DNA of 64,000 bases, from the IMG/VR virus record IMGVR_UViG_3300033417_000005, positions 1 to 64,000 of that record, one strand, 5' to 3'. This document shows positions 7,427-49,821 of the stretch, in pieces. This DNA comes from a virus (taxonomy: Duplodnaviria; Caudoviricetes). The notes under the pieces were generated by a model. It searched no databases and was not told where the DNA came from. It saw only the letters and a program-made list of their open reading frames with translations. The position numbers and the translations under genes were made by a program. Within the stretch, counting starts at the first letter, position 1; each line of letters begins with the position of its first letter.

Positions 7427-7809
7427 CCAAGACCCTCAAGAAGACTCTCGGTGAGCTGTATGGCTGGCCCCATGTCATGACTCACCGGGAGTTTCTTACT
7501 TGGGAAGAGTGGCTGCGGCAAGAATGGGATCAGCCCTCGCGGACGGACCATTACTTAATGCGTATTGCCATGGAGGTTGCTTGCGTGCTTGCGAAGAATC
7601 CAAAGAAGATCACCATGGATCAGTTCAAGATTCCTTTTGACAAGCCCAGTTCCAAAGGACGTGACATAGCTTCGCTAGAACCGAAGATCAAGATGACAAA
7701 AGAACAAGCGGCCTATGTTGCCAAGCGAATGTGGGCAGGTCGCCTCGGCGTTCCTCTTGAAAAGTTAAACATCATTCCAAAGGACGTTACAATGCTGCGC
7801 AAGGAATAA
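7393..7809 (+). CDS. Frameshift extension of tail chaperone (gpGT analogue)
   Basis: The -1 frame reads RTSRYTGGFRVAKTLKKTLGELYGWPHVMTHREFLTWEEW, a GT-like pattern. Confidence 0.8.
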   Translation, partial: RTSRYTGGFRVAKTLKKTLGELYGWPHVMTHREFLTWEEWLRQEWDQPSRTDHYLMRIAMEVACVLAKNPKKITMDQFKIPFDKPSSKGRDIASLEPKIKMTKEQAAYVAKRMWAGRLGVPLEKLNIIPKDVTMLRKE

Positions 7810-28371: not shown

Positions 28372-28560
28372 CTTGGGCTCCTTTCATGGGGTGATTATGG
28401 CGAAGCACCGAAAGCGTTTCACGGCAGTAAGTTACCGCACGGGCATTTTACCAAAAGAGCCTTTCAAACCCTATACCCCACTTTTAGGCCAAAATAAAAA
28501 GTAACTTATGGGGTGTTTACAGACGGCTTCAAAAATGTTATCCTGAAGGGGTTCCTGTCC

Positions 28561-28830
28561 GAAAAAATAATCATATCAATCTTATATATTAACTACTACT
28601 AACCGTATAGAGTCCCGATGAGGGACCCTACTCTCTTCGGTCAGTCTCTCTACTCATCGGTACTCCGAACGGTCACTACTCTACTCTCCTCGGTCCCTCT
28701 ACTCATCTACTCTACTCTTCGTAGTATGGGTACTATGAGCCGATTTTTATCGGCCCTAAGAGGTATATACTACTCTCTATACGGTACGAGTACTCAGGTA
28801 CTCTACTCTAAGGTACTTACTAGGCGCGCG
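28561..28830. repeat. AT-rich tract plus 12 direct TACTC copies (candidate replication origin)
   Basis: TACTC at 28629, 28651, 28661, 28677, 28682, 28700, 28708, 28713, 28771, 28791, 28799 and 28804, all on one strand, in a divergent intergenic gap. Confidence 0.55.
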
Positions 28831-28874
28831 TGCGCGAAGAGGTAATCACTCATACACTCCATACGAGTCACTCT

Positions 28875-29336
28875 ATGCCCATCATTCACTCAAAGAGATC
28901 TGTATACGCAGGGATAGACCCCGGTATGAGCGGTGGGCTCGTCTGTATCGGCCCTCAACTAATCGTTACCCCCATGCCTCCTACCGAAAGAGATATCTGG
29001 GATTGGTTCGAGGCTCTTCCGCCCGTACGTCTGGCCGTGATAGAAAAGGTGCATTCCATGCCCCGACAAGGAGTGGCGAGTACCTTCAAGTTCGGTTGCA
29101 GCTACGGAGGACTGCGCATGGCTCTGATTGCTTCTAAGATCCCATTTCAAGAAGTAACGCCCCAAACTTGGATCAAGGGACTCGGGATTCCCGGTAAGAA
29201 GAAAACTGAATCTGGGACTCAGTGGAAAAATCGTCTCAAGGGCAAAGCGCAGCAATTCTTTCCGCAAGTAGGTGTGACGCTAAAAACGGCGGATGCACTT
29301 TTAATCGCCCGGTACTGCCAAAAAATCGGCAAGTAG
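28875..29336 (+). CDS. ruvC: RuvC-like Holliday junction resolvase
   Basis: GIDPGMSGG, VIEKV, ADALLIA. Confidence 0.85.
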   Translation: MPIIHSKRSVYAGIDPGMSGGLVCIGPQLIVTPMPPTERDIWDWFEALPPVRLAVIEKVHSMPRQGVASTFKFGCSYGGLRMALIASKIPFQEVTPQTWIKGLGIPGKKKTESGTQWKNRLKGKAQQFFPQVGVTLKTADALLIARYCQKIGK

Positions 29337-29355
29337 CGCGGTAAAATGCGTTTAT

Positions 29356-29429
29356 GTTTTCCGCTTACGAAAAGGTGAGCGGCGGATTGAAACACGCTTA
29401 TTTGCGGAAAGAATTGCTGCGCTTTGACC
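29356..29429 (+). CRISPR. Solitary CRISPR repeat (29356-29393) plus 36-nt spacer (29394-29429)
   Basis: GTTTTCCGCTTACGAAAAGGTGAGCGGCGGATTGAAAC; spacer is 32/36 identical to the reverse complement of 29240-29275, with 5' GTC PAM. Confidence 0.85.
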
Positions 29430-29527
29430 ACACGGGGTCAATGGTTTGGATCGTGCGCCCTCTGCTTTGCCGTGCGATCTGATTTTGCGGCCCCGTGTGG
29501 TTCTTACTAATCACCAGGAAAGTCGCG

Positions 29528-29635
29528 ATGAAACCTAGAATGATAATAGATGTGCTTTTGCTGCTGTTAACGTTTGTTTCTCTAGTGGGTATTAGTTTGT
29601 ACAATGTCGTTAGGCTATTGGAGAAATTTCGATGA
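29528..29635 (+). CDS. 35-aa membrane peptide absent from the track
   Basis: AGGA RBS; one hydrophobic helix; ATGA overlap with next gene. Confidence 0.55.
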   Translation: MKPRMIIDVLLLLLTFVSLVGISLYNVVRLLEKFR

Positions 29636-29853
29636 GCAATGAAAATCAAGTGACAGAGGACGAGTCGGACGAGAGTAGGTTTTTGAGAGGCTTTAGAAAG
29701 GCTTCCATCGCGGACTTGGAAAAAGTGGTCCGAAGGGCATTGGTGCTGGAGAAACATACGTACGCTGGGCGCGACACCGCAAGCTCTCTCTACCGTCTGC
29801 GGAAGAGTTTGGAGGGTATTTGGGGCCACGAGTTGCCAGAACTGAAGGAGTGA
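29632..29853 (+). CDS. Hypothetical protein
   Basis: GGAG RBS; coupled to upstream ORF. Confidence 0.6.
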   Translation: MSNENQVTEDESDESRFLRGFRKASIADLEKVVRRALVLEKHTYAGRDTASSLYRLRKSLEGIWGHELPELKE

Positions 29854-29856
29854 AAA

Positions 29857-30267
29857 ATGTGCCTGTCGGTAGCTGTTAATTATCCGGATTGTGTTTTGAG
29901 CAAGGGAGAGCACAAAGGATTTGAGTGGATGGTGGTACACAACGGCCACGGATACCGTTGCGGCTACGTGCGTCTCCCAGTCGGGCATCCGTGGCACGGT
30001 AAGTCTGATTGGGATCTCAACGCGAATGTTCATGGTGGATTGACGTTCTCCGAGCCGGATAAACCGTGTGATGGAGACCGACCGGACAATGCGTGGTGGA
30101 TCGGGTTTGACTGCGCTCATGGGGGCGACGTACCTGACCCGTCCTTGCCGGGGTACACAGACCTCGGGCTTGGGCCAGAGTTTGGAATAGTCCGGACCAC
30201 GGAGTACGTTGAGGAGCAATGTCGAGGCTTGTGCGATCAGGCAAAAGCGCGAGCTCGAAGAGGGTAA
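29857..30267 (+). CDS. Conserved hypothetical phage protein
   Basis: GYRCGYV...HPWHG...VHGGLTFS...WWIGFDCAH. Confidence 0.75.
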   Translation: MCLSVAVNYPDCVLSKGEHKGFEWMVVHNGHGYRCGYVRLPVGHPWHGKSDWDLNANVHGGLTFSEPDKPCDGDRPDNAWWIGFDCAHGGDVPDPSLPGYTDLGLGPEFGIVRTTEYVEEQCRGLCDQAKARARRG

Positions 30268-30324
30268 CTAATCACCTACTTTAGCTACCACAACTTGCTT
30301 GTGTTCAGGGAGTCGGGCGGCGGT

Positions 30325-30867
30325 ATGTCTCAGTTTACGAAACATCTAGAACGGTGGGGAAACTGCGAGCAGTGTGAGCTTCACAAGGTTCGTACGAAGG
30401 TGGTGTTGTGGAGAGGATCCAAGATTCCTTGCGACGTACTCTTTACAGGTGAAGCGCCCGGGCTGACTGAGGACATTGAAGGGCTGCCTTTCACGGGTCC
30501 AGCGGGGCGGCTGCTGGATCAGATTGTAGAGCGGTCGATACCCAATACCTTGTCGGTGGGATTTACAAATCTTATAGCCTGTATTCCGAGAGCCGTACCG
30601 GGTGGAAGCAAGGTGGGAGAACCTCCGCCTTGGGCTATTAAAGCGTGTGCTGATCGGCTGCGCGAGATTATTAAGATTGCGAATCCAGCACGGATTGTTA
30701 CCGTGGGTACGCTGGCGAAGAAGTATTTGCCGAGCAGAAACCTGGAACTGCCCGCCATGGTATCGATTGTCCATCCCGCCGCGATTCTACGGAGCAATCC
30801 CGTACAAAAGGAAGCGGCGATAAGACAGTGTATCATTACTCTAACGGAAATGAGTGAAGATCTATGA
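30325..30867 (+). CDS. Family 4 uracil-DNA glycosylase (Fe-S)
   Basis: CEQCEL; GEAPG..ED..G.PF.G.AGRLL; TNLIACIP; HPAAILR. Confidence 0.9.
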   Translation: MSQFTKHLERWGNCEQCELHKVRTKVVLWRGSKIPCDVLFTGEAPGLTEDIEGLPFTGPAGRLLDQIVERSIPNTLSVGFTNLIACIPRAVPGGSKVGEPPPWAIKACADRLREIIKIANPARIVTVGTLAKKYLPSRNLELPAMVSIVHPAAILRSNPVQKEAAIRQCIITLTEMSEDL

Positions 30868-31904
30868 AAGAGAATCTGCAAACCGTATGGCGCGGTCCTC
30901 ATGAAGACGGTATTACTCAGTCCCTGCTCTCGCGGTTTCTTATGTGCCGTGAACGGTTTCGGGTATTGGTGATAGAGGGTCTGGCTCCTATGGAACAATT
31001 CAATCACCGCCTTGAGTATGGGAACTTTTGGCATATCTGTGAAGAGCATTCGTCAGGTGGAGGAAACTGGACCGCTCCTGTAACGGCTTATGCAAAACAG
31101 CTCGCCCTCAGGTTTCCCGAAAGCAGGGAACAGATTGAACATTGGTGGCGAGTTTGTCTGCGCCAGTTCGAGATCTATGAGGACCTAAAGGGACCTGTAC
31201 GATGCAACAGCCTGATGCAAGAGTTCGTGTTTTCGGTTCCCTATAAACTGCCTTCAGGTCGTACCGTGATTCTACGCGGGAAGTGGGACTCCGTGTTTGG
31301 AGAGGACGACGGTATCTGGCTGCTGGAACACAAAACCAAAGGGACCGTGGACGAGCAGACCATACGACGTCAGTTGACTTTTGATCTGCAAACCATGTTC
31401 TACGTCGTAGCCCTCAAAGAGCATATACGAACCAACACACGAAAGGAGATGAAAGGGAAGAAAGTAGCCGGGGTGCTCTACAACGTAGTGCGCAGGCCGC
31501 TAAGCGGGGGTAAAGGATCTATCAGGCAACATAAAGCAACCAAGAACAAGCCGGGGGAGACGAAGGAACACTTCTACGATCGGGTGGCGAAGATCATTCA
31601 AGAAGACTCGGAGAACTACTTTTTCCGGTGGAAAGTGGTGCTTACGAAGGGAGACGTGGCAGCTTTTAAAAGGAAGTTTTTGAGGCCGATCCTTGAGCAG
31701 TTGTGCGATTGGTGGCATATTCAGGCAACGCTGACGCCTCCGCTTGCTTGGTATAATCGCAGTAATTACACGCACTGGCAAACTCCCTTTGAAGTGTGGA
31801 ATGTTTTGGAGAAGGGAGGCACAACAGACTTGGATGCGTACCTTACCACGGGGAATCGTGCGGGACTTCACAAGGTGAAAACCTTGTTTGGGGAACTTGA
31901 GTAA
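30864..31904 (+). CDS. PD-(D/E)XK exonuclease (Cas4/RecB-like)
   Basis: GKWDSV...LLEHKT; Q...Y motif. Confidence 0.8.
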   Translation: MKENLQTVWRGPHEDGITQSLLSRFLMCRERFRVLVIEGLAPMEQFNHRLEYGNFWHICEEHSSGGGNWTAPVTAYAKQLALRFPESREQIEHWWRVCLRQFEIYEDLKGPVRCNSLMQEFVFSVPYKLPSGRTVILRGKWDSVFGEDDGIWLLEHKTKGTVDEQTIRRQLTFDLQTMFYVVALKEHIRTNTRKEMKGKKVAGVLYNVVRRPLSGGKGSIRQHKATKNKPGETKEHFYDRVAKIIQEDSENYFFRWKVVLTKGDVAAFKRKFLRPILEQLCDWWHIQATLTPPLAWYNRSNYTHWQTPFEVWNVLEKGGTTDLDAYLTTGNRAGLHKVKTLFGELE

Positions 31905-31969
31905 CGCCACGCAGATGGAGGAGCGTGGATAATCACCCATGGACGTTACCATTCTAAAAGGGGAAGGCT

Positions 31970-32563
31970 ATGATGGCAGTGAAGCAGCGTAAGAAGAAAG
32001 AGGGACCTTTGAGCAAGAGAGACCGGATAAGGGAGTATCTGCAAGGCTGTCCTGATCTGAGAAGTATCAACGCGAAGGAAATTGGGCGTATCTTCGGAGC
32101 GAATTCTTCCGAGATTTATAAGGTGCGGAGGGGGATCTATAAGTCTAGGGCGTTCGAGTACACCAATGCAGGTCGCGACGAGATGTTGAAAGAGACGCCC
32201 AAAGAGTTGTCTTGTCGCAAGGAGCCGACGGGTAAGAGAGGAAGAGTACTGGAATACTTGAGAAACCAGCCTGACCTGGCGAACATCAAAGCTAGGGAAA
32301 TCGCGGTGAACTTCGGGGTGCATATTACGGAAGTGTATAGAGCAAGGAAGCTGCTTAGGGAGGAACCAGTCAAGCCACTTCTCCTGAGGTTGTCAGCGCA
32401 GGAACCTTCGGCAACACTCGCGCAGCAATCTCCAGCTTTCAATGGAGCCGGTGACGACGGGGAACTGATTGGCGACCTGGTTGCACTTAACAAGATGGGT
32501 GTCGACAGAGTACGGAGGGCTGTTAAGATCCTGGACCGTTTGAGTATGGAGGATATTCAATGA
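31970..32563 (+). CDS. Protein with two tandem HTH-like repeats
   Basis: RIREYL...AKEIGRIFG...SEIYKVR echoed by RVLEYL...AREIAVNFG...TEVYRAR. Confidence 0.65.
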   Translation: MMAVKQRKKKEGPLSKRDRIREYLQGCPDLRSINAKEIGRIFGANSSEIYKVRRGIYKSRAFEYTNAGRDEMLKETPKELSCRKEPTGKRGRVLEYLRNQPDLANIKAREIAVNFGVHITEVYRARKLLREEPVKPLLLRLSAQEPSATLAQQSPAFNGAGDDGELIGDLVALNKMGVDRVRRAVKILDRLSMEDIQ

Positions 32564-32853
32564 AAAAATCCAGAAGAAGAACGGAACTGCCTAAGGACTA
32601 CGAGCAGTATCTAATTCGGCTTACGGATGAGATCTTCGAACGGGCTTGCGACGAAATGAGCTGGACGTGGAACGAGCTGGCCGACCACGCCAACGTTAGC
32701 CGGAGTGCCGTAGCTCGGCTTGGCAACTACATTACTAAACTTCCTCGGCTTCAGACGTTCTACAAACTGGCAAGTGCGGTTGACATGGACTTGGAACTCG
32801 TAACCAAGCAAGTTGTTAAACTACGGACGGCGGGAAGTTTGAAAGTCGGCTAG
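32560..32853 (+). CDS. XRE-family HTH protein
   Basis: WTWNELADHANVSRSAVARL...PRLQT. Confidence 0.75.
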   Translation: MKKSRRRTELPKDYEQYLIRLTDEIFERACDEMSWTWNELADHANVSRSAVARLGNYITKLPRLQTFYKLASAVDMDLELVTKQVVKLRTAGSLKVG

Positions 32854-32925
32854 TTTCCGCTCGCCAATCAGCGGGCGGCGGATTGAAACAAACTACAGGC
32901 AGTGGGAAAGTTTGAAAGTCGGTTA
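32853..32925 (+). CRISPR. Solitary CRISPR repeat (32853-32889) plus 36-nt spacer (32890-32925)
   Basis: GTTTCCGCTCGCCAATCAGCGGGCGGCGGATTGAAAC; spacer matches 32818-32852 at 30 of 36 positions (1 gap), with 5' GTT PAM. Confidence 0.8.
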
Positions 32926-33068
32926 AAACGATCCCAGCGCGGGTGGGGCGGCGTTTCCAAGCTCTCTCGCTCGCCCGTGCTGGGTTTCACCGGGAGGGAC
33001 TCGGTTTCCGTACTCTGCCGAGTTCCTCCTTTATTGACGCGAAGACTGAGAAAAGGAAAATAGGCAGA

Positions 33069-33974
33069 ATGGTGAAGATAACCAAGGACGTGACAATGGA
33101 CGTTACAAGCAAGCAGCTTCGCAAAGGGTCCGTGAGCGGAAGGAAAAGGAAGTTACAAAGCTCCACGAAATCACAAAGCGTGATAGACCGTATTGCTCCG
33201 ATCAACTTTGGTGAAAACGATGGAATCAAGCTCAACCTCTATGGACGGAGCGGCACCGGGAAGACCACATTGTGGGCCACCTTTCCTAAACCGATACTGG
33301 CGGTGCTGGCTTCCGAATCTAAGACGTCGGGGGAACTTCGGAGCATCAATACTTCCGAGTACCGTAAGACGATCAAGCAAGTGGTGCTGGAAGACTGTGA
33401 CGAAATCGAGGAAATCTGCGCCCACGTGAAAGAAGCAAACTATGCTACTTTGGTATTGGACCACGCCACCGGATTGCAGCACAAGGTTTTGGCTGAAGTT
33501 CTAGGAATTGATAAAGTGCCGGAACAGCTTACTTGGGGGCTCGCCACTCAGTCGCAATACGGTCAGGTGGGGGTACGCATGAAGACTTATTTGCGCGCTC
33601 TGCTAGACGTAGAAATCAACGTGGTGATCGTGGCACAGCAAAGAGAATTTCTTACGGAAGGGGATGAGGGGGCAAGTGAGATTTTAGCTCCGTACGTAGC
33701 GAGCGCCTTGAGCCCGAGCACGTGCGCATGGCTCAACTCCTCGTGCGACTACATTGCACAGACCTACATTAGGGAAGAAACGCTGGAAAAGAAGATCAAG
33801 ATGGGAAAGAAGACACGTATTCGCAAGGTGCGCACGGGCAGCGTACAATTCTGTTTACGGGCTGCACCTCACGCCGTGTATACCACCAAATTTCGCAGAC
33901 CGAAAGGAGGAACGTATCCGGATGTTATTGTAGACCCTGATTATGACAAGATCATGCAAGTCGTGAAAGGATAA
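33069..33974 (+). CDS. AAA_24/Sak4-like ATPase (recombinase)
   Basis: LYGRSGTGKTT; LVLD; VIVAQ; start uncertain. Confidence 0.8.
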   Translation: MVKITKDVTMDVTSKQLRKGSVSGRKRKLQSSTKSQSVIDRIAPINFGENDGIKLNLYGRSGTGKTTLWATFPKPILAVLASESKTSGELRSINTSEYRKTIKQVVLEDCDEIEEICAHVKEANYATLVLDHATGLQHKVLAEVLGIDKVPEQLTWGLATQSQYGQVGVRMKTYLRALLDVEINVVIVAQQREFLTEGDEGASEILAPYVASALSPSTCAWLNSSCDYIAQTYIREETLEKKIKMGKKTRIRKVRTGSVQFCLRAAPHAVYTTKFRRPKGGTYPDVIVDPDYDKIMQVVKG

Positions 33975-34060
33975 GAATAAATCTCATCACCTACGGAGGA
34001 AGTAGACAAGCGACTTCACCTACGGAGCAAGGAAACGAGTTCCATGACCTATGGAGGATA
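33969..34060 (+). promoter_or_regulatory. csrA leader with three ANGGA motifs
   Basis: CTAC-GGAGGAA-GTAG hairpin, CACCTACGGAG and ACCTATGGAGG (the RBS). Confidence 0.55.
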
Positions 34061-34065
34061 AAGAC

Positions 34066-34242
34066 ATGCTGGTGCTAAACCGGAGAAAAGGGGAAAGGAT
34101 TATGATGGGTAAGGACGTCGTAATCACGGTGGTTGACATCCGTGGCCCTGTTGTGCGGCTGGGGATTGAAGCCCCGAAGGAATTGCGGATAGACAGAGAG
34201 GAAGTCCGTGTGCAGCGTTCGAAGAGTGACAAGCCAGTCTAA
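34066..34242 (+). CDS. csrA: Carbon storage regulator CsrA homolog
   Basis: MLVLNRRKGERIMMGKDVVITVVDIRGPVVRLGIEAPKELRIDREEV. Confidence 0.9.
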   Translation: MLVLNRRKGERIMMGKDVVITVVDIRGPVVRLGIEAPKELRIDREEVRVQRSKSDKPV

Positions 34243-49480: not shown

Positions 49481-49821
49481 GTGACTTCTCCTTTCTGCGA
49501 AGCAATCTTTAGCTTTTCTTGAATGGGATATACGACGCCTCGTATTTTCAGTTCGAGCACGGCGTCGAGTGGAATGCTGCGGTACGCCTGTTTTTGTACG
49601 TCCCACACGGTAAGCAGGTTGTGCTCTTCAGGGTTGTAGGCCAGCCCTTTTCCTTGCGCAGCATTGTCACGTCCTTTGAGGTCCTTGGCCACCCCCAAAC
49701 GGCATACCATGCGCCGAGGCTGCCCGTCAGTCCGCTTGATAAACAGGCAGCTGAATATCGTGGCTCCTGCTTTGTTGACAATCAGCCGTTTGGCTTTGGA
49801 GGTTTTACTTTTCTTCTTCAT
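49477..49821 (-). CDS. SH3/WYL-like fold phage protein
   Basis: FIKRTDGQPRRM...VWDVQKQAYRSIPL. Confidence 0.7.
   Translation of the reverse strand: MKKKSKTSKAKRLIVNKAGATIFSCLFIKRTDGQPRRMVCRLGVAKDLKGRDNAAQGKGLAYNPEEHNLLTVWDVQKQAYRSIPLDAVLELKIRGVVYPIQEKLKIASQKGEVT

Follow-up and report, generated by a model that had tools for sequence, protein, structure and literature searches.

Two short CRISPR units lie about 3.5 kb apart in the first 64 kb (the window) of the 72,616-bp IMG/VR virus record IMGVR_UViG_3300033417_000005 (Duplodnaviria; Caudoviricetes), which CheckV rates as complete. Each unit consists of one repeat, a 36-nt spacer and a strong hairpin, and each directly follows a gene that contains a diverged copy of the spacer. 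Unit 1 follows ruvC, a RuvC-like Holliday junction resolvase gene (28830–29336, + strand; PHROG 1770, E 3e-19; homologues named RuvC). This is the last gene ahead of the unit, and it holds the phage's own version of spacer 1. The unit 1 repeat (29356–29393, +) starts 19 nt past the ruvC stop codon and is followed by spacer 1 (29394–29429, +), which is antisense to ruvC. Unit 2 follows two helix-turn-helix (HTH) genes (31970–32563 and 32560–32853, +; Pfam HTH_3 and HTH_28). The first base of its repeat (32853–32889, +) is the last base of the HTH stop codon, and spacer 2 (32890–32925, +) has the same sense as the 3′ end of the HTH gene. Searches of the 72.6-kb record found no match for Csd2/Cas7 or Cas3; the control for a Cas5d search of the same record had no match anywhere.

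Type I-C repeats followed by hairpins

Both repeats belong to the same family. A covariance model built from an alignment of 14 family repeats, and run over the whole window with filters off, scores the unit 1 repeat at 49.4 bits (E 3e-11) and the unit 2 repeat at 53.8 bits (E 1.5e-12). The first 8 nt and the last 15 nt of the alignment are invariant, with the exception of a single 5′-tail position. Covariation is seen in the upper stem: five pairs are changed on both sides, 93.7% of cells are paired, and none of 500 shuffles reaches the covariation score. The unit 1 repeat has an 8-bp stem and an intact 11-nt 5′-handle region. Indeed, the basal 4 bp of the stem and all 11 tail (handle) bases are kept in both phage units, and the differences of the two phage repeats from each other and from host repeats are confined to the upper stem and the loop.

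The assignment to type I-C comes from a scan of one genome per species, in which the family appears as a 38-copy array in a Pirellulaceae metagenome-assembled genome (MAG). The array adjoins cas2, cas1c, cas4 and a C-terminal piece of Cas7/Csd2, and the Cas1 of this MAG passes the NCBI type I-C model TIGR03640 (482 bits against a cut-off of 385 bits). Csd1 was not found in the MAG, so its effector genes may have been lost or left unassembled. The Csd2 fragment (L003, 6884–7174, −) comprises only the last 96 residues and abuts a fragment of an unrelated metal-binding gene, reflecting either loss of the effector module or an assembly join. A metagenome scan found further arrays and some singletons of the repeat family. 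In a sample of 151 Pirellulaceae genomes, the covariance model matched nothing beyond the known array, a doubtful singleton and two arrays of a related I-C family. A scan of IMG/VR for the family gave no matches beyond the phage's own record, and Rfam reported no family over positions 29200–33100. The doubtful singleton (L040, 1501–1538, −), a good match to the repeat model at 37 bits, lies antisense within a 437-amino-acid open reading frame (ORF) of another Pirellulaceae genome and may be a chance match or a hidden solitary repeat.

In type I-C systems, Cas5c reads the cut site and the downstream 11-nt 5′ handle, not the loop, and the 3′ stem-loop is bound by nothing (PMC8524198, PMC7684278). 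In the structure of the I-C Cascade, the seventh Cas7 forms the head and there is no Cas6 on the 3′ end (PMC7684278). Both phage units carry repeats of the type I-C family in which the parts read by Cas5c are intact and the variable parts are those that, according to published work, Cas5c leaves unread; cleavage of their transcripts would be predicted from these features.

The initial annotation held that both units end in a long hairpin in place of a second repeat, and this is borne out. The covariance search of the window gives the two known repeats only, with nothing near them up to E 10, and local alignment of each repeat with its downstream 200 nt is not significant (p 0.78 for unit 1, 0.15 for unit 2). 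Unit 1 has no in-register relic of a repeat. Unit 2 does have one: eight bases from the 3′ arm of its repeat reappear without mismatch at +73 nt (37 + 36), at 32946–32953, in the 5′ arm of the first of two hairpins (p ~0.005 by shuffling). Because this 8-mer, the only relic, lies in register, the hairpin probably overlies a decayed second repeat; unit 2 is caught midway between a mini-array and a single-repeat form. Both units fit the definitions of a lone repeat (no other repeat within 100 bp, in a mobile element) and of a cas-less unit, and neither fits that of a mini-array (two or more repeats around one or two spacers).

The hairpins themselves are among the most prominent folds in the window. 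Hairpin 1 (29426–29502, +) has two tiers and overlaps the final 4 nt of spacer 1; an RNA fold of 29425–29505 has a 14-bp outer and a 12-bp inner stem (−41.7 kcal/mol, z −5.5), and none of 200 shuffles is as stable. Unit 2 has hairpin 2A (32933–32984, +) and a second one, hairpin 2B (32992–33030), that the initial annotation did not include and that ends with a U-rich tail (32992–33036 in all, +). Hairpin 2B has 14 bp and then UUAUU; no clean U tract comes after hairpin 1 or 2A. Folded together (32930–33035), 2A and 2B reach −60 kcal/mol (z −6.0). Both hairpin regions fall in about the top five most stable of 6,400 sliding 80-nt windows, and the stem arms that had been quoted for them are present where they were placed. 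A simple terminator scan lists none of hairpins 1, 2A and 2B. A promoter-like −10 motif, which also precedes other genes, follows hairpin 1 at ~29505–29515, and a promoter scan places a sigma-70-like site at 33034–33061, after hairpin 2B and ahead of a Sak4-like gene. Thus, both units are placed behind an operon's last gene and ahead of the end of that operon, with hairpin 2B as the terminator-like end of the HTH–unit 2 operon. Most simply, the stems are operon-end terminators that serve as the 3′ end of the RNA, rather than a special ruler.

Two further observations concern these regions. An 8-nt motif, TAATCACC, with a −10-like hexamer before it, recurs 12–50 nt upstream of start codons, at 29508, 30269, 31930, 38358 and 50512 (+) and at 28397 and 48250 (−). 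One copy follows hairpin 1, and the motif is probably part of the promoters of the phage or of its host. Separately, a 6-nt Cas7 ruler for the spacing between repeat and stem was considered; the values are suggestive, but only four units are available and the stem edges are fuzzy, and the idea was not adopted.

Does the arrangement occur elsewhere? In a 1.5-kb groundwater contig (L030), a repeat directly follows a stop codon, and the start of the tract after it echoes the last codons of the gene (12 of 13 positions; suggestive only, with p 0.09 contig-wide). A 7-bp hairpin lies 26 nt past this repeat, followed by a long terminator hairpin. In contig L031, 38 nt separate a degenerate repeat from a small hairpin, and the unit lies beside a 129-amino-acid ORF whose translation reads, by eye, like the C-terminal part of a DnaB-type helicase. 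In contig L019, a ribosome site and a gene come immediately after the repeat, with no spacer or hairpin. The layout is therefore recurrent and not universal. The outcome is mixed for the proposal that homologous units without stems would speak against a hairpin-based design: the hairpin is kept in L030 and L031, and L019 has none. Pattern matches in L020 and L032 lie within or against coding sequence and were set aside.

The second-repeat relic in unit 2 bears on one alternative, namely that the units are inert, decayed remnants of mini-arrays or of recombination with a host array, and that they happen to be followed by ordinary terminators at gene ends. Shmakov et al. noted that a mini-array may take on a single-repeat form when its distal repeat decays (10.1101/2023.03.03.530964), and gene-end hairpins are common in this phage. 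This alternative is nonetheless quite unlikely. The 11 handle bases and 4 basal pairs are unchanged in both repeats while the upper stems carry compensating differences, which argues for selection and not decay. Moreover, the phage genome has two instances of the layout, and L030 and L031 show it too.

Spacers and their source copies in adjacent genes

Each spacer resembles the gene beside it. The spacer 1 tract is identical at 33 of 37 positions to the reverse complement of 29240–29276 in ruvC (a − strand protospacer, recorded as inverted repeat I1; alignment p<0.002). This source copy is inverted and 116 nt off, and it is mismatched at guide positions 3, 5, 8 and 34. Spacer 2 is a direct copy of 32818–32853 (+), which comprises the final 11 codons of the HTH_3 gene together with its stop codon (alignment p<0.002); 30 of 36 positions are identical, with five mismatches and a 1-nt gap. 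Both homology tracts begin exactly at the repeat–spacer junction and run for 36 nt, and spacers in arrays of the family are 33–39 nt long with a mode of 36 nt. Hence, the tracts look like true spacers rather than casual duplications. Of the ten differences between the spacers and the copies in the phage genes, nine are transitions, the pattern to be expected if they are diverged homologues. Translated in the frame of ruvC, spacer 1 gives Ile-Ser in place of the phage's Val-Gly; these two positions are variable among 120 RuvC homologues, and the flanking motif is conserved.

The only spacer matches found are these diverged copies in the phage itself. At the position of the protospacer-adjacent motif (PAM), they are flanked by GTC (ruvC) and GTT (HTH); the usual I-C PAM is TTC. 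Three leader-proximal host spacers were scanned in IMG/VR for a PAM, and no protospacer was found there. Comparison of 106 host-array spacers with the window and with related phage loci gave chance-level matches or none, and therefore no direct link to a host.

Pairing between spacer and message suggests another possibility. The three seed differences of unit 1 are all compatible with G-U pairing, so spacer 1 can pair with the ruvC message over 34 bp. If ruvC and unit 1 share a transcript, 29243–29276 would form this 34-bp duplex with 29393–29426, enclosing the repeat hairpin; the transcript from ruvC to the hairpin folds with the duplex at −140 kcal/mol (z −10). The units could be regulators that act in cis on phage genes, or Cracr-type RNAs that partly match the promoter of a host cas or toxin gene, and an order of repeat, spacer and terminator is the layout of CracrVA1 (10.1101/2024.10.29.618823). 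However, spacer 2 is not antisense to its gene and thus cannot pair with that gene's message, and both DNA copies in the phage are mismatched in the seed and flanked by motifs other than TTC. For the Cracr form, a match of 9 or more PAM-proximal bases to the promoter of a host cas or toxin gene would be expected. Matches to the 18-nt seeds are at chance level in the single host-like genome, which itself lacks effector genes and may not be that of the host. Regulation of either kind is very unlikely.

Possible roles as guides, decoys or homing cassettes

What might the units do? The reading preferred here, to which we give a probability of roughly 45%, is that they are cas-less, single-repeat genes for type I-C CRISPR RNA (crRNA)-like RNAs, with a guide that would be aimed at rival-phage alleles of the neighboring gene. 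The units would occupy the 3′ untranslated ends of two phage operons, and each would be co-transcribed with the gene upstream. Cas5c from the host would cut at the 3′ base of the repeat stem, giving an RNA made up of an 11-nt 5′ handle, the guide of 36 nt and a 3′ tail that is structured. By stopping transcription or blocking 3′ exonucleases, the strong hairpin would provide the 3′ end that is otherwise supplied by a second repeat. The RNA would then be loaded into host Cascade and aimed at variant alleles of the neighboring gene in rivals; a lesser version is that Cascade would merely be withheld from host crRNAs. Since nothing binds the 3′ stem-loop in type I-C, the second repeat may be dispensable, serving only to make a 3′ end, and it is plausible that one repeat, a guide and a 3′ hairpin make up a complete crRNA gene in this type. 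Such an RNA could be a weapon or a decoy, and the guide is a preference.

Several findings weigh against guides aimed at rivals. The GTN flank at ruvC is due to a conserved Thr codon, which sets it in 107 of 120 homologues, and TTC is present in none. This argues against the reading for unit 1, which cannot direct canonical I-C interference at ruvC unless the I-C variant uses another PAM. In addition, no rival allele was found: the core of spacer 1 and spacer 2 have no IMG/VR match outside the phage's own record, the protein collection contains no such allele (the closest RuvC is 69% identical, and the closest HTH protein, P0122, encoded on a 589-bp ENA contig, is 80% identical), and a GenBank phage BLAST search with both units gave nothing meaningful. 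The phage repeats are only about 75–80% identical to any host repeat found. Finally, on a rough gene map, hairpins of −38 kcal/mol or better occur in 6–8 of ~39 intergenic gaps, so strong hairpins at gene ends are common in this phage beyond the CRISPR units. Nor is the spacing between repeat and stem constant across the four units (26, 32, 38 and 43 nt).

These points modify two parts of the initial annotation. It had proposed a defined minimal crRNA cassette, and the shared layout of repeat, 36-nt spacer and stem, workable in type I-C, agrees with that. The stems need not be purpose-built, given their position at operon ends, the promoter-like site after them, the similar hairpins in other gaps and the 26–43 nt range between repeat and stem. 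It had also proposed that each unit lies beside its target gene, such that guide and escape allele are inherited together. Both spacers are diverged copies of the genes beside them; the missing rival allele and the GTN at ruvC count on the other side.

A non-TTC flank would be immaterial if the spacers were passengers, for example acquired by integration at a lone repeat. This is the explanation offered by RNA anti-CRISPR (Racr) decoys, in which solitary repeats bind Cas5c and Cas7 in dead-end complexes and the hairpins are plain terminators. The repeats are solitary, the phage lacks cas genes and the parts read by Cas5c are kept, all as a decoy would need; RacrIC1, too, is found right behind a gene whose transcript it shares (PMC10651486). 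The two HTH genes ahead of unit 2, in an accessory module, recall the aca-type regulators of anti-CRISPR loci, and the singleton in L019 has neither spacer nor hairpin. A decoy function leaves unexplained, however, the two junction-exact 36-nt copies of a gene within 0–116 nt; we estimate that two such adjacencies would arise by random draw from the 72-kb genome with a probability of ~1e-5. Furthermore, Pfam/PHROG-type family scans of the neighboring genes show no known Acr gene adjacent to the units. Decoys are therefore possible but somewhat doubtful, and guides remain the favored explanation.

A more elaborate scheme, which we consider unlikely, is that the units are homing cassettes dependent on host Cas proteins; they would amount to a natural gene drive between phages, with RNA as its guide. 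At unit 2, and it seems also in L030, ~73 nt (recoded last codons plus one repeat) would have been inserted at the stop codon, such that the original gene end, 3′ untranslated region and terminator became the spacer and 3′ hairpin. The crRNA would direct host Cascade–Cas3 to cut “empty” sites in co-infecting relatives, and the phage exonuclease, Sak4 and RuvC, among whose genes the units lie, would carry the cassette over into the rival along with the linked immune allele. An analogy is the intronless homing of free-standing homing endonuclease genes in T-even phages: the nuclease specificity is encoded beside the gene that would be cut in relatives, and the carrier's copy of that gene differs at the site. 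In the present phage, the specificity would come from an RNA guide that borrows host Cascade–Cas3. A different origin, in which Cas1–Cas2 inserted a repeat-sized fragment with a 36–37-nt target duplication, was rejected; it fits unit 2 and L030 but not unit 1, where the copy is inverted and 116 nt away.

Parts of the arrangement proposed for guide genes are known from other systems. First, viral CracrVA1 and host CreR consist of a single repeat-like element, a spacer-like element and a rho-independent terminator (Liu et al., 10.1101/2024.10.29.618823). Like CracrVA1, the units described here are viral and cas-less, have one repeat and one guide, carry a hairpin, probably a terminator, in place of a second repeat, and would need processing by host Cas proteins. 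CracrVA1 is of type V-A, in which Cas12a needs only the 5′ repeat, and its guide partly matches a host cas promoter, whereas the present units are of type I-C and their guides resemble the phage's own neighboring genes. The type I Cracrs of the same study (10.1101/2024.10.29.618823) retain flanking repeat-like elements, and the present units do not. Second, RacrIC1 is a lone I-C repeat after a gene (Camara-Wilpert et al. 2023, PMC10651486). The phage units share with it a solitary I-C-type repeat directly after a gene, probable co-transcription and the lack of cas genes. In contrast to Racr action, which is independent of the spacer, each repeat here is followed by a tract of canonical length with a clear source, and no acr gene is adjacent. 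Third, the mini-array spacers of SPV1 and SPV2 match related viruses near the array, the carrier's own loci are mutated, and the reason for this proximity was left open (Medvedeva et al. 2019, PMC6858448). The resemblance lies in the lack of cas genes, the nearby spacer source and the mutated locus of the carrier. The SPV1 and SPV2 arrays are archaeal, have a repeat–spacer–repeat structure and leaders, and match a known co-occurring rival at 100%; the present units are bacterial I-C, have one repeat and a hairpin, have a source 0–116 nt away, and yielded no rival. Hence, the basic layout was already known, and what is distinctive here is type I-C, the occurrence of two units in one phage, spacer sources within 0–116 nt, and the midway form of unit 2.

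What would follow if the RNAs are processed and loaded in the way described above? First, type I-C would need only one repeat and any 3′ stem for a working guide. Second, each unit would be the smallest natural type I guide gene, which could be useful for compact I-C tools. Published searches for mini-arrays, which require two repeats, and for Racrs, which ignore the spacer, would both misfile such units. The tight pairing of each guide with a mismatched source copy sharpens the question raised by Medvedeva et al. of why viral spacers target sites beside the array. Two defined 150-nt cassettes make that question testable in this phage.

Gene neighborhood and other repeats in the window

Between ruvC and the gene for a UDG-family protein (30295–30867) lie three small ORFs. 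A PD-(D/E)XK exonuclease gene (30864–31904) comes next, followed by the two HTH genes, unit 2 and a gene for a Sak4-like AAA_24 protein (33069–33974). The exonuclease and Sak4 genes are directly adjacent in four relatives (L007, L008, L010 and L012); in the other relatives, either the contig breaks off there or the two are separated by a different small gene. Neither the HTH genes nor a CRISPR unit is present at the exonuclease–Sak4 locus in any of the relatives. The direct adjacency in those four indicates that the two HTH genes, unit 2 and its hairpins are an inserted module. The RuvC-bearing relatives have no unit downstream of ruvC, and the related phages L004–L018 (45–61% amino-acid identity) have none at the corresponding places. 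No tRNA genes were found in the window.

Other repeated sequences are present in the window. A dispersed, asymmetric motif of ~24 nt, with the core AGGACGTKACA followed by a GC-rich half, has ~22 copies, for example at 7656, 7781, 10901, 33085, 34954, 35586 and 49652–49675 (−). It occurs in intergenic gaps and within genes, and one copy lies just inside the Sak4 gene, after unit 2. Between the Sak4 gene and the next ORF, three 29-nt units are arranged in tandem at 33987–34073 (repeat family D1). Finally, TACTC-rich direct repeats (families D2 and D4) at 28641–28809 lie upstream of and inside the small ORF that precedes ruvC, by a divergent intergenic gap, and this cluster could be an iteron or origin-like region.

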